From positions 1 through 64,000 of IMG/VR virus record IMGVR_UViG_3300021426_000070: a stretch of DNA of 64,000 bases; one strand, written 5' to 3'. The notes beneath the pieces were generated by a model. The model made no database searches, was not told the DNA's origin, and saw only the letters and a program-made list of their open reading frames with translations. Numbering within the stretch: position 1 is the stretch's first letter; each line of letters starts with the position of its first letter. The position numbers were made by a program, and so were the translations under genes. Source of the DNA: a virus (lineage: Duplodnaviria > Caudoviricetes). Shown here piece after piece: positions 36,472 to 50,627 of the stretch.

Positions 36472-38442
36472 AACTACTCATTTTAATTACAGGTTCAATA
36501 TCATAATTTTCACTAACAAATATTTCAGCACTGTATTCAAGATATCGGCACTGAGTTTTAAATGTTTTTATTTTTTCTTCTATAGTTCTTTTATTTGTTG
36601 CCATAGTTATTTCTTTAATCGTTTTTTAATAACATTAATAAAAATTGAGCCGATGAATATATTGTAAACCATTCCAATCGGCTTGTTATATTTCATAACC
36701 TTGAAGAATGGTTTCCAAACATAATCAAGTATCGTAAAATTCACTATAAACCTTTTAAACTCCATTGGTTTTTCTCAGATTAAATTTTCCAAACAGTATC
36801 TAATAGCAGCGTTACAAGCAAATTCATACTTGTCATAAAGTGGCAGCATTTCTTTTACATATACCCATTCTGAACCCCTAAGTTGCCATGGAGTAAAGGA
36901 ATACTTATCTTTTTGGGGATTGACAGATATAACAATATTGTACTTTTTCCTCAGCCACTTGCAAGCAAGCTGATGAGTTATTGCCCACACACATTCATAA
37001 TCATCTTCTGATTTATGAATACCATTAAGGTTGCAACAAAGAATAGGTTCACTATCCTTATATCGTCTAATATATCCCACCACAAATTTATGTGGGTACA
37101 AGAAAGTTTCGACCTCTTTATAATCAAACCCTTTCTCTTTCAATAGCTTTGCGACCTCGAACGAAATATAATCCTCAGTTATTGTTGCCATAGTTCTTTC
37201 TTTAATTGTTCAATAACGCTTTCTAAATATCCGTTTGCACGTGCATTCATACTAGTTAAGAACAGTTTCTGAAACTCTTCAATCTGCTCAAGCACATAGT
37301 TTGCACCATCTTCAATACCTTGGGAATAAGCAATGCTTTCTTCTCTCGAGAGTTCTACTCTTTTTTCGACCAACTCTTCTGCCTTTTCTTTGATACTCAT
37401 CATACCTTTTCTACTGATAAAGCGAATATTTTATAAAATCTGTCGTAGGGGAAGTCTTTAATCTCGACCTCCTTAACATTATCACTGCGCCCGTATAGGT
37501 TGCCGTTTACAAGCAGCTCAAGCCAATAGTGTTCACCTTTCTTGAACACCCCGAAATCTTTCTTGCAAATCAGCCAATGCGTCAATGCTGTTCTTAACTC
37601 TTTTTCACCCATAGCCTTATTTGTTATATTCTTTAAGTAGATAGCAAACTTGCTCGCAGAAATCAACACCGTCCATTTCACGATTATCTATCGCTTTTTG
37701 TATTTCTTTCAATACATTGTTCGCCTTTTCGTATTTCTTCTTATAATCCATGGTCACAACATTTTTGTTTCATGTAACTTCTCAATCATAGCCACACAAG
37801 CATCAATTGGGTTGCTTGCTGTGTCTCCTATGTGGCAGAAAGTACAATTCTCATTATAAGTGTCGCATCGCCAACCATTATAAGTTTTATGCAATGAAGG
37901 GTTTGGCAGAACACTAATCAACGCTGCAAGCGACCAACAAGGAAGATATATTGCATCTGTTTCTTTATAACTTTCAGCAACAATCTCACTATATCCAAAA
38001 GATGGAGATTTCAACGCATCAGGGTCATCCTTCCAAAAGAACCATTTCGAATCCGCACTATTATACGGTAGTATCTCAGCAAGCTTACGGCTTTGCTCAA
38101 TAGTTGTGTATGTTCTAATTAATGCCATAGTCGTTTTACTTAAAATCAAAACTCACCTTCTTGCGCTTTCTTTGCCGTAATCTCTATGACACGCCAAAAG
38201 AAATCATGGAACGTATATACCTCTTTCTCAGCCTCAGACCATATCTTCGGCTCATCGGCAATATACGATAGCATAGCCACCTTCGACTTGTCAATGCTAT
38301 TGTAGCTGCTGTCCTCATTCCAAAGGATAGCGTCCTTGTCAACGCCAACGAACACATAGTAGTCTTTCGTCAACGCATAAAAAGCTATTTTCAGCCTTTC
38401 GATAAATGATGTTCTCTGTTTCATAATCATAATCAATTTTAG

Positions 38443-38516
<74 letters not shown>

Positions 38517-38569
38517 GTTGCCAACCGCCGTTGGCTTTGTTTAACCAAAAAAATCTCGCAAAATAACAG

Positions 38570-38643
38570 TGATTCCGATGGGGCTCGAACCCATGACCTA
38601 TTGTTTAGGAAACAATTGCTCTATCCTACTGAGCTACAGAACC
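38570..38643 (-). tRNA. tRNA-Arg(CCT)
   Basis: Cloverleaf: GGTTCTG/CGGAATC acceptor, ATTGT-TTCCTAA-ACAAT anticodon arm, GGTTCGAGCCC. Confidence 0.95.
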
Positions 38644-41981: not shown

Positions 41982-42347
41982 TTATGATTTACCTTTTATC
42001 CAAGCATCAAGTCCTCTTGCGCCATAGTTCTTTTCTATACGCTCTTCCAATTCACTCTCGAGCTTGTTTCTACGCTCGTACAAGTCACTTCTGAGGTAGC
42101 CGACCTTAGCATGCTCTTTGTTGACCTTGTTTAGCCTATCGGCAATATCGTTGTACCCGAACGCCTTAGCCATGGTAACACTAGCACCGCCATGGTCATT
42201 GTTATCCGTCTGCCTTTGTGCTCTTGACACCGCACTTCTGAACTTGCGGCTATCCAAATCAACTGTCTGCCTAGGACGCTCGAGTCTCTCAGAGCCTCGT
42301 GAACTTTTTCGTTCACCGCCTCTTGTGATATCTACATACTCACCCAT
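41982..42347 (-). CDS. Basic hypothetical late protein
   Basis: ATG start; directly downstream of GTC-ORF A; followed by a hairpin at about 41955-41979. Confidence 0.6.
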   Translation of the reverse strand: MGEYVDITRGGERKSSRGSERLERPRQTVDLDSRKFRSAVSRAQRQTDNNDHGGASVTMAKAFGYNDIADRLNKVNKEHAKVGYLRSDLYERRNKLESELEERIEKNYGARGLDAWIKGKS

Positions 42348-42359
42348 AATTATCAGATA

Positions 42360-42689
42360 TTAACCATTTATACTACCCTTTGCAGCCGCTGCAGCTCTAT
42401 CTTCATTAGTTGCTCTCATGGCGTTTGTCATCAGAGTAGTAGCTAAAGTACCTTCTTGTGTTCTTGCACCACCAATAGTAAGGAAAGGTCTTGAACCTGC
42501 TATTTCTCTTGATGAAGTCCATCGTGAAGCTATCTCTCTAACTTGCTGTGCTCGTCTTATGTTACCAACAGCATTTGCTTGTCGGGCAAGGCGGCTTGCT
42601 GTCCTATTGATGTTCTCAGCAGTACGGAACGTGGTTCGCTTTAAACCATCACCACCGTAACTAATACGACCATTTCTATTTGTTCTGAC
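42360..42689 (-). CDS. GTC-initiated Arg-rich peptide A (109 aa, VRTNRNGR...AAKGSING)
   Basis: Open frame bounded by TGA immediately before GTC AGA; paralogue of peptide H (T[FY]RTAENI..TA.RL). Has its own promoter at 42724-42731. Confidence 0.7.
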   Translation of the reverse strand, partial: VRTNRNGRISYGGDGLKRTTFRTAENINRTASRLARQANAVGNIRRAQQVREIASRWTSSREIAGSRPFLTIGGARTQEGTLATTLMTNAMRATNEDRAAAAAKGSING

Positions 42690-42723
42690 TCAGCTAAATA
42701 TTTTGATTATTAATACTCTGCTG

Positions 42724-42795
42724 CAAAGATACAAATAAAAGAGATAGTACGAATACCACATCTATTATTACTTGTTACACTTTCAAAATAATACC
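42724..42795 (-). promoter_or_regulatory. Late-type promoter of peptide A
   Basis: TATCTTTG plus operator half-site GTTACACTTT at 42774. Confidence 0.65.
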
Positions 42796-42831
42796 CAAAA
42801 CAGCAAAGATACTGAAATATCAGCAGAAAAA

Positions 42832-42873
42832 CGTTACAACTTTTGAGGTAGGCGTTACAACTTGCGTTACAAA
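42832..42873. repeat. Triplet of CGTTACAACTT direct repeats
   Basis: Copies start at 42832, 42853 and 42865 (last one partial). Confidence 0.8.
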
Positions 42874-42923
42874 TAAAGGGCAGTAACATGTACCGCCCTT
42901 GTTTAGTGCCTTAATCAGTATTA

Positions 42924-45230
42924 TCAATAAACGCCCAACTCTTGCTTAGTAACCTTCTTCTTCACCAATGGATGCCCTAAGATGTTATGTAAAAAATAAT
43001 ACCGTACACCATCGAGTATGTGATTGTCGTGGTCTTCGGGTACGTTTGTGTAGTTACCGAACTTATCCTTTGCATAGACATAGTTTCGCAACTCATCTTG
43101 TGTATTCAAGGAACGCTTAGTTACATAAATCTCATAGTCAAGCATCTTTGACAAACCAGCCTCAATAGAGCCAGCACCTTTAGCCACGGGGTATATGATA
43201 ATACCGCCTAACGCTATCTCATCTACCAATCGTGGGTCTGCGCTCTCGGAATATACAAAACCATCATCACCTCTGTCCGCCTCTTGTCTAAGCTCACGGA
43301 TAATATCGCCACTTGTCATAGCATTTCGGTAACAGAGCTCGTCAATATACAAGCGGTTATCTATAACACCACACCTTGCGATAGCCGTAACGTCATTTGA
43401 ATATCCAAAGTCGATACATCTTCCTATCTTCTTTGCATAGCTCGGGAACTCATCAACGATACCCCATTTCTTGAACACAGCACCCTCAGCGACATCTGCC
43501 CACTGCCCCATGACGATATGCGCATACCTCTGAGGGTTCTTGACCTTCATATCAAGCACCTCTTTCAAGAACTGCTCGGAAAGGTTATTGATATTATCAA
43601 GGTATGTAGTATGGATATGTAGTACGTTCGGGTGTGTGCTTATCTGTACGGGTACGCCATCGAAATACTCTATCTTATGCGTGTCCTTGATAAACCGCTT
43701 ATACACCCAATGGTTAGAGTCGCATGGGTTCATGATGATGATTACCCTATTCTGCAGTCCTTTGACACGAATAGAGAGCATAATCTTCTCAAACTCTTCT
43801 TCCGACACCCATTCCTCAGCCTCATCGACAACAAACGTTGTGACACCTTGGATAGATTTAAGCTTTGCCGTCTGATTACCGCTTGAAGTGTGTATGCCTC
43901 GGAACATCACACGTGCCTTGGTCATATTGTTCACCACATCGGTCTTGGTCTTTGAGAAATACTCTTCTGTATTATCGACCTCCACCTTCTCCCAAAACTC
44001 GGGAATAACGGAGATAGCTGCCGACACCATGGTAAAACGGGTATATAGTATCTGATGGGCTAATTTCTTCTCGGGGTTATACTCAAAGGTGAGGCGTTCT
44101 ATAAAACGGGAAGTGTTGTACGACTTCCCACTGTTGTGACTAACAGTTCCATCTGCGTGTAAATAGCGTTGATTTCCATCCAAATGAATACCACACCATT
44201 CACCATTACCAACAGATTCAATAGTTAGCTTAGAAACCAACCAATCTGCTCTCTTATGTGGATATACTTTCTTACGTGCTATCTTACACGGAATACGCCA
44301 AACATCACCATTAATAGACAACCGATATACTATACCACAATCCTTTTCATATATCTTTGCTCTTCTTGTTCTTAAAGAAGTCCTAAAACCTAATGTATCA
44401 GCTATCAGCTTTATTTGTCTTGCAATAATCTCTTTCTTCTGTGTTATCTCATAACCATTACGAGACATATTGCCATCTGTATCAAGCAAACCAGCCAATA
44501 GCTCGAGTCGTACCTCTTCACTATTAGCTATATACTCTTGCGGAATATGCTTGTTACCTACAAGATTATAGAAACGCAACTTTTCCATAAAAGGATTATC
44601 GTGACACCCTTTTTTCTTTAAACGTAATGTTTCTGCCTTACCACGTTTACCATTCAATGACAACACCATTCCGTTTCTATCTACATACTCTTGCAGATAA
44701 TCCTTTATCTCTTTGTCGGGTGTTGTTATCTGAGGATATACCGAAGTACCGTCACCTAGCCAAACACCGAGCATATAGGGGTCAATCTTTACGGGCTGTT
44801 CTTTGTAAGGAATAGAGTTTGCCTTATAACCATACCAACGTTCTCTAAAATTCTTACTCTGTTTTAAGAACTCTTGAATATTGATATCTATCTTATCTTC
44901 TTTATTTGGATAGCGACCTTCGGAATATATGCCTCTGCCCTTTCTTATGCTTAATATGTGCCCATCGTTTACATAGTAGTCCTCAGCGTTCGTCTGATGT
45001 ACTCTATACATTTCACTATACCCGTGATAGGTTTTAAGCACGTTCCTTGGTGTGCCGTCATCACCCATCACCTTGTCACCAACCTTGATATCCTTAATCT
45101 GTTTAATGGTCATATCTGCCATTATCACCTCTTGGTCGGGTCGCTCACAGCCTCGTCCCCCCGTTACAAGAATGATGAATTTCTCCTTATCGTTATATAG
45201 CGGATAATATACGCTCTGTGTCTTACTCAT
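42924..45230 (-). CDS. terL: Terminase large subunit (PBSX-type), intein-containing
   Basis: Walker A GGRG|SGKS split by the intein; Walker B FVVDEAEE; MNP; IDFGYSND; DNHILDGVRY. Confidence 0.95.
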   Translation of the reverse strand: MSKTQSVYYPLYNDKEKFIILVTGGRGCERPDQEVIMADMTIKQIKDIKVGDKVMGDDGTPRNVLKTYHGYSEMYRVHQTNAEDYYVNDGHILSIRKGRGIYSEGRYPNKEDKIDINIQEFLKQSKNFRERWYGYKANSIPYKEQPVKIDPYMLGVWLGDGTSVYPQITTPDKEIKDYLQEYVDRNGMVLSLNGKRGKAETLRLKKKGCHDNPFMEKLRFYNLVGNKHIPQEYIANSEEVRLELLAGLLDTDGNMSRNGYEITQKKEIIARQIKLIADTLGFRTSLRTRRAKIYEKDCGIVYRLSINGDVWRIPCKIARKKVYPHKRADWLVSKLTIESVGNGEWCGIHLDGNQRYLHADGTVSHNSGKSYNTSRFIERLTFEYNPEKKLAHQILYTRFTMVSAAISVIPEFWEKVEVDNTEEYFSKTKTDVVNNMTKARVMFRGIHTSSGNQTAKLKSIQGVTTFVVDEAEEWVSEEEFEKIMLSIRVKGLQNRVIIIMNPCDSNHWVYKRFIKDTHKIEYFDGVPVQISTHPNVLHIHTTYLDNINNLSEQFLKEVLDMKVKNPQRYAHIVMGQWADVAEGAVFKKWGIVDEFPSYAKKIGRCIDFGYSNDVTAIARCGVIDNRLYIDELCYRNAMTSGDIIRELRQEADRGDDGFVYSESADPRLVDEIALGGIIIYPVAKGAGSIEAGLSKMLDYEIYVTKRSLNTQDELRNYVYAKDKFGNYTNVPEDHDNHILDGVRYYFLHNILGHPLVKKKVTKQELGVY
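44133..45149 (-). mobile_element. Intein with LAGLIDADG homing endonuclease (339 aa)
   Basis: Starts at Cys (CERPDQEV) and ends SHN before Ser; contains LGVWLGDG and LLAGLLDTDG motifs. Confidence 0.93.
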
Positions 45231-45402
45231 ACTCTTCTCCCGTTTCAATCACATAACCTTGCTTATGGCACTGAGGGCACTCTATATCCCTCAGCTTACA
45301 CCCGATAGGTCGGACGGCTAGCCACCTCTTCAAACAAGATAGGCAGACAACCTCACTGACCTTATGCGGGATATTCTCGTTTATATCCACGATATTGCTC
45401 AT
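45223..45402 (-). CDS. 59-aa zinc-ribbon protein (below ORF-track cut-off)
   Basis: MSNIVDINEN...CLSC...CPQC...; overlaps both neighbouring genes by a few bases. Confidence 0.65.
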   Translation of the reverse strand: MSNIVDINENIPHKVSEVVCLSCLKRWLAVRPIGCKLRDIECPQCHKQGYVIETGEEYE

Positions 45403-45594
45403 AACTCATCTTCAGTATAGCAATCAATTTGGATAACGTTCTTTCTTCTCTTTGGATAAGCCACAAATTCGAAACGTTCCATTCTCTCCGTGTGCCCGTC
45501 CTTATAGTGGGCTACGATAACCTTTGTGTCGCCGCTGATACTCATCCATCCCTTTTCTTTCGGGTCTATCTTATAACTCTTCATATCTCACGTT

Positions 45595-45990
45595 TTACTT
45601 TTTACCTTTCTGTACCTTATAAAGACAATCGAACACCCAACTTTGGTAATAGGCATAACATTCGCTGTTGTAACTCCTTTCCGTCTCACCTATATCCTCA
45701 AAGAGCCAATCAGCGCAATGGGATGCCTCATGACTGAGCGACTTCAATTGCGTGTCTTTCCTTATAAGGACTAGACACCCCTTGATGTTCTGTGCTTTGT
45801 TGCCTACAATAAAAGTCTTTGCATCTACGCCGACATCCAATAGTGTATTGTTCTCCTTGAACGACATACCTATGTTATCATCATATATCGCCTCAAAAGC
45901 ATTATCTATCTCATCTATGGTAATGCCATCTAATGCCACCCATACCTTTGTAGGAAAGATGATAGGGTCGAACTCATATATCTTACTCAT
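45595..45990 (-). CDS. HExxH metallopeptidase-like protein
   Basis: SHEASHC...SECYAY. Confidence 0.55.
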   Translation of the reverse strand: MSKIYEFDPIIFPTKVWVALDGITIDEIDNAFEAIYDDNIGMSFKENNTLLDVGVDAKTFIVGNKAQNIKGCLVLIRKDTQLKSLSHEASHCADWLFEDIGETERSYNSECYAYYQSWVFDCLYKVQKGKK

Positions 45991-46556
45991 TGCCCGCCCT
46001 CTTCTTTCTCTAACTCGTTCTCTCTCTCAAGCCATGCAGATATGCTTACGCCATTCTTGACCTTTATCTGCACGTCACTATCCTCTATGCCCCTTTGGAT
46101 ATTCCTAAACTGAGGGTCATGGTGGTAAAGGAAGTTAGCAAGTGCTTGCATGTTTGGTGCTGTCTCTTGCTCTGACTCGGTGATATCCTCTATGCGGTTA
46201 TTCTTGTCAGCAACGCCATTGACAACATTGTACCTCATACGTACAACCTTGCCTTTCACCTTAATGCCTCCGAGGGCTGCTTTGAGGTATCTACCCCTTA
46301 CAATTCCTAGTACTCGAGAACGTCCGTGTGCTAACTCTTCGGAGATACGAGCACCCCTTTTTGCGTTCTCTTCATCATTCCATCCTTTGTATTTACCCGC
46401 TTTCATTTCTGAAAATGTAGTGGGCGTTAATCCCGCAACCCCTAGACTATCACCTAGAGCATATGCAATTTCCCCATCTTGGAGACCTTGCATAGCGAGG
46501 GCATATATCTCTTTGTAGAAGTCCTCGCTATCATAGTCGAACTTTGGTTTTGCCAT
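45987..46556 (-). CDS. Probable terminase small subunit
   Basis: N-terminal HTH (GLQDGEIAYALG); APNMQAL; upstream of terL. Confidence 0.7.
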   Translation of the reverse strand: MAKPKFDYDSEDFYKEIYALAMQGLQDGEIAYALGDSLGVAGLTPTTFSEMKAGKYKGWNDEENAKRGARISEELAHGRSRVLGIVRGRYLKAALGGIKVKGKVVRMRYNVVNGVADKNNRIEDITESEQETAPNMQALANFLYHHDPQFRNIQRGIEDSDVQIKVKNGVSISAWLERENELEKEEGGQ

Positions 46557-46702
46557 CTTGTTTGTATTTTACTTGAATTATATATTGTTTGTAATATCTT
46601 TTCTTTTCTCTTTTTATTCGTTTGACATCATTTTGTAATGTTTTCTCGGGTGTTTGTAAAGTTGCTTTACTTTTCAGAAAAATCCATGTAAAGATATTTC
46701 TT

Positions 46703-47044
46703 TTATCCCGAGATAGCTGCTTTTGCAGCGGTATTGGGTGTGTACGTCTGTGATTGTCGTGCAGCCACCTCATAGTTTACGGTGTTTCCTATTACCTTGG
46801 TGAGTACTGCACCACTATCATTAGTAAGGGCTTCATTGGGTCTAATGCTGTCTGCCCTACCTACTGCCCTTAGATAGTTAGCCTCTATGGTTCTGATACG
46901 CTGCTGCCTTTGTCTGTTGCCTCTTGCAGCCGCTACTAACCGCCTTGCAGTCTCCCTTATATTCTCAGCAGTTCTATACGTGCTGTTGTTGCCATCAAGT
47001 GGGCTTGTGCTATTGTAAAATGATGGATTCTTTAATCTTTTGAC
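46703..47044 (-). CDS. GTC-initiated peptide H (113 aa, VKRLKNPS...AAKAAISG)
   Basis: AGGAGG-gaagcaga-GTC AAA; no in-frame ATG. Confidence 0.7.
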   Translation of the reverse strand, partial: VKRLKNPSFYNSTSPLDGNNSTYRTAENIRETARRLVAAARGNRQRQQRIRTIEANYLRAVGRADSIRPNEALTNDSGAVLTKVIGNTVNYEVAARQSQTYTPNTAAKAAISG

Positions 47045-47060
47045 TCTGCTTCCCTCCTAT

Positions 47061-47309
47061 TTATCCGTTACTACTACCTTTTGCAGCTAGTGGTGCGTAC
47101 TTGTCACCGATACGAGCACCATAAGATACCTTGATGTTTGCCCTACGAGACCAATCCACGCTCTGCAAGCGGTCGTTGATATTGTTTCTATACTCTTGTG
47201 CGATACGTGAGATACTTGCTAGACGTGTGCCCCTAGCTGTATTCGACATACGGGCTGCTTGCTCGTTGATATCGCCTATAGACTTTGCCATTGGTTCTCT
47301 CCGTCTGAC
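47061..47309 (-). CDS. GTC-initiated peptide G (82 aa, VRRREPMAKS...AAKGSSNG)
   Basis: AGGAGG-gtacaga-GTC AGA; an in-frame ATG at codon 7 is an alternative start. Confidence 0.7.
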   Translation of the reverse strand, partial: VRRREPMAKSIGDINEQAARMSNTARGTRLASISRIAQEYRNNINDRLQSVDWSRRANIKVSYGARIGDKYAPLAAKGSSNG

Positions 47310-47320
47310 TCTGTACCCTC

Positions 47321-47521
47321 CTATCCGTTTGAATTTGATAAGGCATTGAGCATATTCGCTCTTGCTCTGCCTATTCTGTTATAGTTATCTTGCCCATACT
47401 GCCTTAGTAATGCATTCGCACGGCGATTAATGGCTCGTCCTACCATGGCTCTTCTTGCATATTGCCCCAAACCTCTTACATCACTAGTACGATATTCCAA
47501 TGTTCTCTTACTTGCTCTGAC
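47321..47521 (-). CDS. GTC-initiated peptide F (66 aa, VRASKR...ALSNSNG)
   Basis: AGGAGG-aagcTGA-GTC AGA; in-frame stop directly before GTC. Confidence 0.68.
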   Translation of the reverse strand, partial: VRASKRTLEYRTSDVRGLGQYARRAMVGRAINRRANALLRQYGQDNYNRIGRARANMLNALSNSNG

Positions 47522-47532
47522 TCAGCTTCCTC

Positions 47533-47664
47533 CTATCTGTTAGATAATCCCATTTGACATACTCTAATTAAAGATTGTTGGATGATAACGCAACTGTCCG
47601 TTAGCGAAATGCTTCTTGGTCTTACCATTGCTCTCCAATTCGACAATGCCCTACCGAAATACAT
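47533..47664 (-). CDS. 43-aa ATG ORF ending MGLSNR (degenerate family member?)
   Basis: C-terminus matches the family except for a Gly>Arg change. Confidence 0.35.
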   Translation of the reverse strand: MYFGRALSNWRAMVRPRSISLTDSCVIIQQSLIRVCQMGLSNR

Positions 47665-47666
47665 TT

Positions 47667-47924
47667 TTAACCATTACTCAATCCCATATACGAGCTACGT
47701 GCAAACTGCAGTCTGTTGGCTCTGCCCATATTGCGCATATACTCATCTGTGTTGTCCTCAGCCGACACGTTGCCACGAGCCGCCTTATAGCTTGATTTGT
47801 TACGTATGTTGCTTACGTACCTCATAGCTGCTTGGAAAGCTCTATCCAAACGTTCCCCGTCTGTCCTAGCCGCTATGCGGTTGTACTGACGTGTTATATC
47901 ACTTACTGACTTTGTTCTTCTGAC
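47667..47924 (-). CDS. GTC-initiated peptide E (85 aa, VRRTKS...YMGLSNG)
   Basis: TAG TGT CGG GTC AGA; KS..DI..Q motif lies upstream of the first TTG/ATG. Confidence 0.72.
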   Translation of the reverse strand, partial: VRRTKSVSDITRQYNRIAARTDGERLDRAFQAAMRYVSNIRNKSSYKAARGNVSAEDNTDEYMRNMGRANRLQFARSSYMGLSNG

Positions 47925-47930
47925 CCGACA

Positions 47931-48176
47931 CTAACCATTACTCATACCCATATAGGTACTACGTGAATACTTTCTGTTGTCTATCTCATTAATATTACCA
48001 TTGCCACGAAGTGCATTTCTGTATGCGCTCGAATAGCTTGGTGTGTTCTGAATGTTATTCAGATACCTAAGAAACGTTCTTCCTATGCGGTCTTGTCTCT
48101 GAGGATTACCCTCTGAGCGTTCCCACAAAGCTTGCGCTTGGTCAAGTATATCATTCTTACTCTTATTTCTTCTGAC
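47931..48176 (-). CDS. GTC-initiated peptide D (81 aa, VRRNKS...YMGMSNG)
   Basis: TAA AGC CGA GTC AGA; shares NRKYSRSTYMG with peptide C. Confidence 0.72.
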   Translation of the reverse strand, partial: VRRNKSKNDILDQAQALWERSEGNPQRQDRIGRTFLRYLNNIQNTPSYSSAYRNALRGNGNINEIDNRKYSRSTYMGMSNG

Positions 48177-48182
48177 TCGGCT

Positions 48183-48395
48183 TTATCCGTTTGTAAGACC
48201 CATATAGGTAGAGCGTGAATACTTTCTGTTGTAAGCACCCTCACCGCCTTTTCGAAAGCTGCGTTGGCGCATAATCCTATCGGTGTATCTGTCAGCCGCT
48301 ATGTTAGCCGCTGCCACCCTAGAAGCCGTTGCTCGTGGATTGTTCTCTATCCTATCGGCTTGCTCTAAGATTTCTCCAAAACTCTTCCCTCTGAC
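48183..48395 (-). CDS. GTC-initiated peptide C (70 aa, VRGKS...YMGLTNG)
   Basis: A-rich leader then AGA GTC AGA; not in the ORF track. Confidence 0.72.
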   Translation of the reverse strand, partial: VRGKSFGEILEQADRIENNPRATASRVAAANIAADRYTDRIMRQRSFRKGGEGAYNRKYSRSTYMGLTNG

Positions 48396-48484
48396 TCTTC
48401 TGTTACTTTTAATTGTTATTATACATCAAATGCTACGGCAGACACTCTAACGAGGGAAAGCCATAGCATATATTCCGTGTCGGG

Positions 48485-49015
48485 TTATCCCGCTGACAAG
48501 CCCATTGAATACGTGCCGTCTGCGTTCTGTCTGATGACATTGCCACCGCTACCCTCAAGACGACCTTCAACAACACGTGCCATGCCGTTATCAAGCCATG
48601 CTTGGATTACCCTAGGCGAAATGTTGTTCATACCCGTGCGAACATCATAGTCACGCTGACGGCGGTTAGAAAGCGACTTACGACCACTCTGTGACACAAG
48701 ATTTCCATCCATATCACGATTGGTAAACGTCCATGTGCTACCGCCAGCCCTACGACCATCTGCAGACATCTTACCAGACCTTGTGCGGGTGATGGTCTGA
48801 ATCTGCTGACCGCTGTTCCACGCTTGCTGCTGACCTTGCAACTCTGAAAGCTGATAGCCTCGAGAATTAACCAAAGGCTGTGCAGTACGTGCTCCACCAG
48901 TATAAGCGGAGTTTGCACCACGTCCATCAATACCCGCATTGATTCGGGCACGCTGCTGAGATACCGTATTGGTATTCGGATTGGTGCGATTTCGTTCTGT
49001 TCTTTTTCTTGGCAT
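48485..49015 (-). CDS. Arg/Gly-rich protein with canonical ATG, ending YSMGLSAG
   Basis: Same C-terminal motif as the GTC family. Confidence 0.8.
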   Translation of the reverse strand: MPRKRTERNRTNPNTNTVSQQRARINAGIDGRGANSAYTGGARTAQPLVNSRGYQLSELQGQQQAWNSGQQIQTITRTRSGKMSADGRRAGGSTWTFTNRDMDGNLVSQSGRKSLSNRRQRDYDVRTGMNNISPRVIQAWLDNGMARVVEGRLEGSGGNVIRQNADGTYSMGLSAG

Positions 49016-49041
49016 AGTTCTTCTATATTAATTATTAAACA

Positions 49042-49413
49042 TTATCCTACCGCATTACCCATCTTTGCAGAATTGGACGAATTAGCTGATGAGCCACGAT
49101 AGACTTCCCTTCCTAGCTCTGCATAGCGTTCACGATTGTAATCACGGATAAAGCGTCCGTGCGTTGCATTTGCTGCATTGGGGTTAGCTGCCGCACGTCT
49201 CTCTATCTCTCTCTGTATGTTGTCGATATAACGCTGACCGATGGCACTAAGCCGCTCTCTGTTCCTATACCACGTGTCCGTACCATAGGTGCTGCCCTCG
49301 ATACGGGCTAACTGAGCCCTTACAGACTCGATAGAGCGACCTCTTCGGGTGCTACGCCTAGTATTGGCGTTCACCCTCGCATTGCCTAAGTATGATAAAT
49401 TACCTTTTCTGAC
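49042..49413 (-). CDS. GTC-initiated peptide B (123 aa, VRKGNL...KMGNAVG)
   Basis: The -7 box at 49436-49443 lies downstream of the ORF-track ATG (49509); leader AAAGGAttgcaga-GTC AGA. Confidence 0.68.
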   Translation of the reverse strand, partial: VRKGNLSYLGNARVNANTRRSTRRGRSIESVRAQLARIEGSTYGTDTWYRNRERLSAIGQRYIDNIQREIERRAAANPNAANATHGRFIRDYNRERYAELGREVYRGSSANSSNSAKMGNAVG

Positions 49414-49435
49414 TCTGCAATCCTTTCTTTTGTTG

Positions 49436-49557
49436 CAAAGATAGGTATAATTCCGTATATAAGGAAAGTATTTCCATAATGAAAACGCACACTTTACAAA
49501 TAGTGCCAAATGACATCATTAGAGCATACTCATTTAGCATTTTTCTCCTTATCTTTG
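49436..49557. promoter_or_regulatory. Symmetric divergent late promoter pair around operator 49486-49507
   Basis: TATCTTTG on minus (49436-49443) and plus (49550-49557) strands, equidistant from CGCACACTTT-ac-AAATAGTGCC. Confidence 0.65.
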
Positions 49558-49634
49558 CATTGGTAATTTTTCGGTTCAACAAATCTTTTTTCTGTATAGG
49601 GGGTTGTCCGTGAGGATAGCCCCTTATCGTATGC

Positions 49635-49670
49635 AAAAAAAGTGAGCCTACTTTCACAAGCAAGCCCACA
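49635..49670 (-). terminator. Intrinsic terminator after ParB-like gene
   Basis: GTGGGCTTGCTT-GTGA-AAGTAGGCTCAC followed by T7. Confidence 0.75.
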
Positions 49671-49706
49671 ATAAGACAATAATAAATAAATAACGTGTAT
49701 AATTTT

Positions 49707-50540
49707 CTAGTCAATAAATTCTATCCTCTGTGAGAACTCTTCACCCTTGATAAAACGCATATCATCGGGATAGCCCGCACGTGCCATAAACTCTTGCTTC
49801 GACTTGAAGTCATCGAAAGAAAGCATGATGTACGCCTCTTGGTTCATGGCGTTCTCGATGGCTTGGGTCTTAACTTGCTCCTTGACATCTTTCATGTGCT
49901 GCTTCTTCTCTTCGTAGCTCTTCTGCTCATTCTTCTCTATCTGAGCGTCCTGCATGGCATTGGCTTGCACTTGTGCCGCCTTGATAGCCTCACGCTGCTC
50001 ACGCTGACGTTCTAAGTCCCGTTGGTGCTCTTCGTTGACTTGCGCCATCATATCGTCCAACTCTGAGGACAGCTTGTTCTCTTCCTCGGTCTGAAAAAAA
50101 TAGTCAGTGCCAATCATGGATAGGTCAACTTCTGTAAGCCCCGCTTTCTTGTAATCCATGAATGGGATAATCTCAGCCAACTTCTGATAGTCAAACTTAC
50201 CGCCTATCTGCGGGTTGTTCAGTGCCGTCAGCACCTCGAGCTCTTCCTTTTCATCGACATCAATAACCTCACAACGGAGCATATAATCCGTCTCGGGTTT
50301 CTCGGGTTCATACTTCTGCTGCTCATCGAGCAACGCCACCTTCTGATTACCGCCCACTAGAACATAGTCGTTACGCTTATTAACAATGATACCGCCTAAG
50401 ATACCAAAGTTCTTCATAGACCGCCTTAACGCCTTTCTACCCTCATCGTCAATGGTACGTGGGTTACGTGGGTGAAAATGTATCTGTGAGCGTTTGAGCT
50501 CTTGTATCTCACTATTTGCAAAAAACTTACTTAACTCCAT
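49707..50540 (-). CDS. ParB/Srx N-terminal-domain protein
   Basis: HPRNPRTI...FGILGGIIVN...LVGGNQKV. Confidence 0.8.
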   Translation of the reverse strand: MELSKFFANSEIQELKRSQIHFHPRNPRTIDDEGRKALRRSMKNFGILGGIIVNKRNDYVLVGGNQKVALLDEQQKYEPEKPETDYMLRCEVIDVDEKEELEVLTALNNPQIGGKFDYQKLAEIIPFMDYKKAGLTEVDLSMIGTDYFFQTEEENKLSSELDDMMAQVNEEHQRDLERQREQREAIKAAQVQANAMQDAQIEKNEQKSYEEKKQHMKDVKEQVKTQAIENAMNQEAYIMLSFDDFKSKQEFMARAGYPDDMRFIKGEEFSQRIEFID

Positions 50541-50555
50541 AATCTTATTTTTCTG

Positions 50556-50627
50556 CAAAGATAAACAGAAAATGTTTATTCAGCGCATTATTTGTACCAC
50601 AATAGCATACTCTTTTGAAAGTGTATC
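50556..50627 (-). promoter_or_regulatory. Late-type promoter of ParB-like gene
   Basis: TATCTTTG plus CATACTCTTT-tg-AAAGTGTATC at 50606-50627. Confidence 0.65.

Follow-up and report, generated by a model that had tools for sequence, protein, structure and literature searches.

Introduction

To our knowledge, every natural translation system described so far uses a single initiator tRNA with a methionine anticodon, and dedicated non-methionine initiators exist only as engineered constructs. Phage suppressor tRNAs recode stop codons of late genes, as in crAss-like and Lak phages, and ordinary phage-encoded initiator tRNA(CAU) genes exist. The closest described system is an Escherichia coli tRNAfMet with an engineered GAC anticodon (G34C36), which is charged by valyl-tRNA synthetase (ValRS), formylated and able to initiate at GUC in E. 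coli, in mammalian cells and in the archaeon Halobacterium, and which in its formylvaline (fVal) form is not limited by initiation factor 2 (IF2) and re-initiates well (PMC2268962). Compensatory mutants of A37 have also shown that position 37 of E. coli tRNAfMet pairs with the base at -1 of the start codon (PMC10018350). Full-text literature searching returned engineered systems only, and no natural phage initiator with a non-methionine anticodon was found. Here we analyze the first 64 kb (the window) of a 129,359-bp IMG/VR virus record (IMGVR_UViG_3300021426_000070; rated complete by CheckV), the genome of a Bacteroidota phage in which a family of small basic proteins is very probably started at GUC by a second, phage-encoded initiator tRNA with the anticodon GAC, here called tRNA(GAC). 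All evidence on the GTC starts and on tRNA(GAC) is comparative and computational.

Results

Paralogous open reading frames headed by GTC

The window contains eight paralogous minus-strand open reading frames (ORFs) of 66-123 codons, units A to H, each of which is headed by an in-frame GA-GTC-A and ends in a glycine codon followed by a stop (Table 1). A sequence-only reading of the window had singled out these ORFs, and their coordinates, strand and twelve-base contexts all proved correct, as did the TGA that abuts the GTC in A and F, the stop that lies two codons upstream in D and E, and the GGAGG found 7-8 nt upstream of the GTC in F, G and H. Counted in codons after the GTC, the first in-frame canonical start (ATG, GTG or TTG) comes at 6 in G, 7 in F, 16 in D, 25 in E and 26 in C, and as late as 86 in A and 92 in H. 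Unit B does have an in-frame TTG 32 codons upstream of its GTC, but this lies beyond a promoter-like TAtcTTTG box, the Bacteroidota -7 consensus being TAnnTTTG; the ORFs have no usable canonical start, in line with the earlier statement that no in-frame ATG, GTG or TTG precedes the motif within the predicted transcript. The motif GRGTCARA occurs 15 times in the window against 7.4 matches expected, and 8 of its 13 minus-strand matches head, in frame, startless ORFs of one protein family. Hence, although the raw count is only about twice that expected by chance, the placement of the motif is not a chance effect. Across 17 aligned family members with a mean identity of 27%, the only invariant columns are the first codon, which is always GTC, and the last glycine. 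The relatives L009 and L010, whose terS genes are 77-78% identical to that of this phage, carry arrays of 8-9 units, all headed by GA-GTC-A and none with an ATG at this position.

RNA editing, splicing, ligation, stop read-through or bypassing, the last in the manner of the T4 gene 60 hop from a Gly-stop, might be thought to supply a start to these ORFs or to join the units to one another. All units do end in Gly-stop, a GGA lies downstream of the GGA-stop from F to G and from G to H, and C, D and E share one frame. However, no matching glycine landing codon is present from C to D or from D to E, and read-through would have to act on all three stop codons. Recoding of TGA would still leave F without a start, with a TAA six codons upstream, and stop-codon reassignment (code 4, code 25 or a code 15-like scheme) does not fit with the TAA that precedes D and the TAG that precedes E. 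Moreover, A, B and the family genes of the small phages described below stand alone, A, B and C have no upstream unit, and no Rfam RNA or intron-like element was found at 42000-50000. In phages with ATG-type family genes, these arrays consist of separate genes that each start at an ATG of their own. We regard mechanisms of this kind as exceedingly improbable; resumption in the manner of transfer-messenger RNA, RNA editing or ligation and a protein factor acting alone, all entertained by the sequence-only reading, are not needed and found no support.

Constraint on the N-terminal codons

A different explanation is that the genes start at the internal ATG, GTG or TTG codons and that GAGTCAGA is a regulatory or ribosome-binding element of the 5' untranslated region whose frame is incidental. 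In-frame canonical codons are available 6-26 codons downstream of the GTC in C, D, E, F and G, and gene callers yield such truncated products, such as the database protein P0012, much as the sequence-only reading had foreseen. Internal starts would, however, leave A and H with only 23 and 21 residues, and the substitutions upstream of such starts are mostly synonymous. In comparisons of orthologous pairs, the codons from the GTC to the first canonical start held 134 synonymous and 46 non-synonymous differences and the remaining ORF 274 and 120, where pair counts, like the locus counts below, include related sequences and overlapping orthologous pairs and are not independent. Before its first canonical start, unit C differs from its L009 and L010 orthologues by 9-11 synonymous changes and one non-synonymous change (9 and 1 for L009), and the internal ATG of unit G (codon 7) is an arginine codon in the orthologues of the same two relatives.

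A profile made from the 17 family members and run against 1.84 billion representative proteins retrieved 360 representative relatives, 28 of them with E<=1e-10. The match to the family profile is full length, with conserved K5, S6, Q13, Y36, I40 and C-terminal Gly, and the proteins are of the type M-A-R-K-K-S ... Y-M-G-L-S-N-G. Of the best 150 among the 360 relatives, 100 begin with M-(A/P)-R-K-K-S from an aligned ATG, and the last residue is Gly in 147. Distant homologues start M-A-R-K-K-S and GTC-headed members V-R-K-K-S, and given the 100 aligned starts we conclude that the GTC stands in place of the ATG-GCN of the others. An ATG at this position in homologues had been put forward as an argument that would overturn the GTC starts; it is indeed present in distant homologues, but there it marks the true N terminus, and the close relatives keep GTC. 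A few database entries that begin MEDSRVRK... are gene-caller extensions from a chance ATG within the ...NGG-stop/Shine-Dalgarno region of the preceding unit.

An AlphaFold model of unit E from a 42-sequence alignment (mean predicted local distance difference test score, 94.4; predicted template modeling score, 0.80) includes in its predicted fold residues 4-5 and a helix at residues 7-20, upstream of the first canonical start at codon 25, so that the fold as modeled would require the N-terminal helix. The substitution pattern and the model together indicate that the segments between the GTC and the first canonical start are translated, and we give very little credence to internal starts.

The family proteins are small, basic (15% Arg), confidently folded by prediction, tandemly amplified and fixed in the packaging module. 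Pfam gave no match to the family and PHROG a single marginal one (unit A with phrog_7886, E 0.0066); Foldseek found no match in the Protein Data Bank, and the ESM Atlas and the Foldseek viral library offered no named viral protein or functional lead. A homologous-protein search with P0015 gave no named relatives, and a related-locus search with unit A or B singly as query found nothing.

An initiator-type tRNA with the anticodon GAC

Beyond the window, the same genome encodes a tRNA(GAC) (Table 1) with C1xA72, G2:C71, C3:G70, G4:C69, A11:U24 and A73, a tRNAfMet-like D arm and the anticodon loop UUGACUU. Outside the loop it agrees with a Prevotella initiator tRNA at 52 of 67 positions (78%), a similarity equal to that with its sister tRNAs in phages, and with an elongator tRNA-Val(GAC) from Opitutaceae at 38 of 67. 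Twelve distinct variants of tRNA(GAC) share a common cloverleaf with compensatory changes at 13 of 20 pairs; position 1:72 is always unpaired, and A11:U24, the loop TTGACTT and the formylation determinants G2:C71 and C3:G70 are invariant. The unpaired 1:72 typical of initiators is C1xA72 here and in all Bacteroidales-phage copies, and C1xU72 in the copy of a Chryseobacterium prophage, exactly as in the initiators of its own host, which shows that the acceptor end tracks the host initiator. Features of an elongator tRNA-Val(GAC), namely a paired 1:72, a pyrimidine at 11 with a purine at 24 and a purine at 37, are lacking, and tRNA(GAC) has instead a mismatch at 1:72, A11:U24 and U37; the Opitutaceae elongator has G1:C72 and A37. 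The anticodon is GAC in all copies and not the methionine anticodon CAU, and the molecule thus reads as initiator-like in body, yet not as tRNAfMet.

A homing-endonuclease ORF of the HNH_3 type (L015:5147-5755, minus strand; genome 69147-69755) terminates within the 5' portion of the tRNA(GAC) gene, which suggests that the tRNA travels with or adjoins a mobile endonuclease.

Co-occurrence of tRNA(GAC) with GTC and GTT starts

Pattern scans located this tRNA in 31 further viral contigs, a contig of a Bacteroidales metagenome-assembled genome and a Chryseobacterium zhengzhouense prophage (33 loci), and a scan for the C-terminal motif of the proteins added 6 more tRNA(GAC) loci, giving 39 further loci in total. 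The Chryseobacterium prophage belongs to a cultured strain, CGMCC 1.15067, and its tRNA lies at about 284.85 kb of NZ_JBHTCR010000004.1. At least one GTC- or GTT-headed family ORF is present in 31 of the 33 pattern loci, the other two ending just downstream of the tRNA, and all six loci from the motif scan likewise pair tRNA(GAC) with GTC- or GTT-headed family ORFs. GTT heads some members (in L214, L215, L217, L017 and L018) and does so only where tRNA(GAC) is present, as wobble at G34 predicts. The tRNA was not found in 12-20 kb of the same module in the ATG-type loci L204, L222, L223 and L225; the eight family genes of L204 are all headed tt-ATG-GCA-AGA. Among the mechanisms for dedicated non-AUG initiation that the sequence-only reading had listed, a special initiator tRNA is the one supported by an initiator-type tRNA(GAC) in the same genome and by its co-occurrence with GTC- and GTT-headed family members across phage lineages.

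The scan of genome contigs with the tRNA pattern gave at least 120 matches, and among the 80 loci examined most were chance matches, two were iVal-type tRNAs and one was an ordinary elongator tRNA-Val. Three matches of a first, too strict tRNA pattern were not tRNAs, and L218 was a chance match to the C-terminal motif. One family copy of the ATG-type phage L222 (L222:7806, plus strand) is apparently disrupted, with a stop directly after its MARKKS head.

In small phages and in proviruses, whose records measure 32-57 kb and are in several cases incomplete, the order is tRNA, ASCH-like gene and TGA-GTC ORF. This ORF lies about 450 nt downstream of the tRNA and often precedes a PAPS-reductase-like gene and more GTC units, and the Chryseobacterium prophage has the same layout of tRNA, ASCH-like gene and GTC ORF. 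The ASCH-like gene (PUA-like RNA-binding fold) lies directly downstream of tRNA(GAC) in all 33 pattern loci as well as in this genome. A role as dedicated cofactor is not supported, since a 58%-identical copy is found in L204, which is ATG-type and has no such tRNA.

The GUC codons could instead be read by the ordinary initiator tRNA of the host or by reinitiating ribosomes, with tRNA(GAC) acting as an elongator or being unrelated. Weak initiation occurs at many non-AUG codons in E. coli, and several units begin 6-25 nt past the preceding stop, so coupling would be possible. Two of the three bases of GUC, however, do not match the CAU anticodon, and coupling is unavailable to the units without an ORF upstream, namely A to C and, in the small phages, the first GTC gene. 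The features of tRNA(GAC) are those of an initiator and not of an elongator, the tRNA co-occurs with GTY starts, and an extra elongator would be unneeded because GTC is the rarest valine codon of the phage (17.6%). This account of the GUC starts therefore seems very improbable to us.

Start-codon context and covariation with the tRNA

The 30 distinct GTC starts share far more than the codon itself: G at -5 (24 starts), C at -4 (22), H at -3, G at -2 (30), A at -1 (29), GTC (30), A at +4 (28), G at +5 (23) and A at +6 (28), with a purine-rich, Shine-Dalgarno-like stretch at -14 to -7. Among the 113 canonical ATG genes of the phage, T occupies -1 in 65% (background, 26%), and in ATG-type family genes it does so in 10 of 11 and 5 of 5. 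The base at -1 is thus complementary to position 37 of the decoding tRNA in both classes, U-AUG going with A37 and A-GUC with U37. G at -2 opposite U38 and A at +4 opposite U33 would fit an extended pairing of the same kind.

A longer, 11-bp pairing of GCHGA-GUC-AGA with tRNA positions 41-31 was rejected, as the Chryseobacterium tRNA differs at 39-40 and its gene keeps GCTGA-GTC. AGA is the second codon in most GTC-headed genes, and the phage has two tRNA-Arg genes (UCU and CCU) that read AGA and AGG. The idea that AGA itself is the real start, read by tRNA-Arg(UCU), was also discarded, because the second codon changes to GCA, CAA, ACA or GTA in orthologues that all keep GTY; the same variation suggests that the second codon (AGA or AAG) reflects a basic N terminus and not a start signal. 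AGA and AGG make up 52% of the arginine codons of the family and 45% of those in other long ORFs, and the two tRNA-Arg genes are possibly supportive of the GTC genes, not essential to them.

Proposed mechanism

From the computed features of the ORFs and of tRNA(GAC) we infer charging, formylation and initiation at GUC as follows. The second initiator would derive from a Bacteroidota tRNAfMet, with GAC in place of CAU; host ValRS would charge it with valine (identity elements A35, C36 and A73), host formyltransferase (Fmt) would formylate it (C1xA72, G2:C71 and C3:G70), and IF2 would place it in the ribosomal P site, where it would pair with GUC, or with GUU through G34 wobble. Reliance on host ValRS, Fmt and IF2 is suggested by an anticodon and acceptor determinants that are the same as in the engineered G34C36 tRNAfMet. 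The family, which begins M-A-R-K-K-S from ATG in most phages, would have had its start rewritten to GTC where the tRNA is present, giving (f)Val-Arg-Lys, and both unit A and the array that lies between terS and the ParB-like gene would be translated from a start codon private to the phage. The conservation of G-2, A-1 and A+4 would follow from extra pairing with the U38, U37 and U33 flanks of the loop UUGACUU.

It is conceivable that tRNA(GAC) initiates at GUC but brings in an amino acid different from valine or lacks the formyl group, for example through mischarging or through charging by a factor of the phage. U37 and U38 and the weak 31:39 pair are unusual, and the identity rules come from E. 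coli and not from Bacteroidota. However, recognition by ValRS depends mainly on A35, C36 and A73, an initiator engineered to carry GAC is Val-charged and formylated (PMC2268962), and the few neighboring genes that were scanned gave no match to a synthetase or formyltransferase. We attach only a slim chance to such a departure from fVal.

Genomic setting

Nearly all genes of the phage are on the minus strand, and the GTC-headed units lie in its packaging module (Table 1). A DNA match to the phage was not found in the phage GenBank collection. One member of the array has a canonical ATG, and a 43-codon ATG ORF between E and F is, from its sequence, probably a decayed family unit. A candidate ninth member outside the window has the head GCCGA-GTC-ACA-AGA-AAG and the tail NTLGLTSG-stop with a larger, unrelated body between them; its true start is ambiguous, since an ATG occurs at codon 5, and the ends that it shares with the family may represent a targeting tag.

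The large terminase gene (terL) contains, within its N-terminal ATPase part, an intein with Hom_end_hint and LAGLIDADG homing-endonuclease domains, and terL of the ATG-type relatives L222, L223 and L225 likewise has Hom_end_hint. An 89-nt tRNA-like gene beyond the window (genome 85529-85617, minus strand; L016), for which ARAGORN called a four-base anticodon (atag), sits among Gln, Leu, Lys and Glu tRNAs and could be an intron-bearing or frameshift-type tRNA.

Table 1. Features of the GTC-headed family, the tRNA(GAC) and their surroundings. Positions are those of the window or genome unless a locus is named.
Feature	Position	Strand	Details
Unit A	42360..42689	-	GTC 42689; 109 codons; TGA-GTC-AGA; stand-alone, downstream of terL in the packaging module
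Unit B	49042..49413	-	GTC 49413; 123 codons; context TGCAGA-GTC-AGA; end ...GNAVG-stop
Unit C	48183..48395	-	GTC 48395; 70 codons; end TYMGLTNG
Unit D	47931..48176	-	GTC 48176; 81 codons; stop two codons upstream (TAA AGC CGA GTC)
Unit E	47667..47924	-	GTC 47924; 85 codons; head GGGTCAGA
Unit F	47321..47521	-	GTC 47521; 66 codons; TGA-GTC-AGA; GGAGG 7 nt upstream
Unit G	47061..47309	-	GTC 47309; 82 codons
Unit H	46703..47044	-	GTC 47044; 113 codons; head GAGTCAAA
tRNA(GAC)	genome 69105-69178	-	ARAGORN; 5.1 kb past window end
Array member with canonical ATG	48485..49015	-	176 aa; MPRKR...; end SMGLSAG
Candidate decayed unit between E and F	47533..47664	-	43-codon ATG ORF; end QMGLSNR; from sequence reading
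Candidate ninth member	genome 66789-67457 = L015:2792-3457	-	outside window; 222 codons; head GAGTCACA; no Pfam match
Candidate promoter-like -7 box	49436..49443	-	TAtcTTTG; 22 nt upstream of unit B GTC; from sequence reading
ParB-like gene	49707-50558		packaging module
Array of family genes	46703-49413		packaging module
terS	45987-46556		packaging module
terL	42924-45248	-	packaging module; intein-containing
tRNA-Arg genes (UCU, CCU)	38442-38516, 38569-38643	-	read AGA/AGG
ASCH-like gene, example	L015:4553-5071	-	
ASCH-like gene, example	L198:4299-4655		
ASCH-like gene, example	L208:9942-10292		
tRNA of L216	L216:5046-5120 = L221	-	initiator-bodied; deviant D arm

Discussion

Several observations weigh against initiation by tRNA(GAC). 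The three consecutive G:C pairs (29-31:39-41) of a classical initiator are replaced in tRNA(GAC) by A29:U41, C30:G40 and U31.G39, and the anticodon stem of the Chryseobacterium copy differs again; in the Prevotella host initiator only two of the three pairs are G:C (A29:U41, G30:C40 and G31:C39). U37 is very unusual for a tRNA and raises the question of whether tRNA(GAC) functions normally. With default filters on multi-kb stretches the Rfam tRNA model did not report the initiator-type tRNA(GAC) genes at L015:5105-5178, L017:503-575 and L145:273-346, and it missed that of this genome even with a permissive E-value on stretches of 701 and 171 nt. On a 181-nt stretch with permissive filters the L017 copy reached 49.5 bits, above the gathering score, and a host initiator and both tRNA-Arg genes received normal scores from the model. 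The proposed pairing does not account for G-5 and C-4, which are also conserved at the GTC starts. L216, a 9.7-kb viral fragment, combines ATG-type family genes with a related tRNA whose anticodon loop has 8 nt (TTGACTTC), and may represent the system in decay or in transition. The GTC-type arrays of L009, L010, L210 and L212 are known from records that are 9-41% complete, and the relatives L009, L010 and L011 are fragments in which tRNA(GAC) is absent.

Taken with the N-terminal constraint, the co-occurrence and the covariation, these points leave it very probable that tRNA(GAC) starts the family at GUC. A fuller version, in which the loop UUGACUU of an fVal tRNA pairs with a 5-7 nt signal, G-A-GUC-A-R, as a natural orthogonal initiation system, and in which starts usable only by the phage gate a diversifying packaging-module family to the phage programme, is a tentative proposal that we would place slightly short of probable. 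We guess, as speculation only, that the phage couples translation of the family to expression of its tRNA.

If true, a virus-encoded initiator that adds GUC and GUU starts would count as a natural feature of the genetic code not described before. Synthetic biology in Bacteroidota would gain an orthogonal initiation pair ready for use, and the system would offer a natural test of the extended codon-anticodon model in which position 37 pairs with -1. It would also explain gene arrays in gut and rumen phage genomes that are missed or truncated by gene callers confined to ATG, GTG and TTG. The tRNA itself can escape annotation, as its absence from the Rfam reports obtained with default filters illustrates, and annotation pipelines may overlook such genes.

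Comparison with known systems

Phages with suppressor tRNAs, Bacteroidota phages among them, resemble the present phage in that a phage tRNA gives a codon another meaning in some of the genes, and gene callers fail on those genes. Suppressors, however, act in elongation at stop codons, whereas tRNA(GAC) would act in initiation at a sense codon, adding a start instead of removing a stop. An ordinary phage initiator tRNA(CAU) is likewise a phage-borne copy of a host-like initiator, but tRNA(GAC) cannot read AUG and should carry valine. In the quadruplet pairing of tRNAfMet A37 with U-1 (PMC10018350) the base at -1 is complementary to position 37, as it is in the phage; there the pair is inverted (U37:A-1), its conservation is near absolute, and it reaches to -2, with G opposite U38. 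The nearest parallel is the G34C36 tRNAfMet engineered in the Schulman and RajBhandary laboratories (PMC2268962), in which, as in the phage tRNA, an initiator body bears the anticodon GAC for GUC. Unlike that construct, the phage tRNA comes from a natural gene that several phage lineages have conserved through compensatory changes, and it has the flanks U32, U37 and U38 and a weakened lower anticodon stem. With its function read from sequence features, the phage tRNA also appears to have what the engineered initiator lacks, a whole gene family rewritten to match it.

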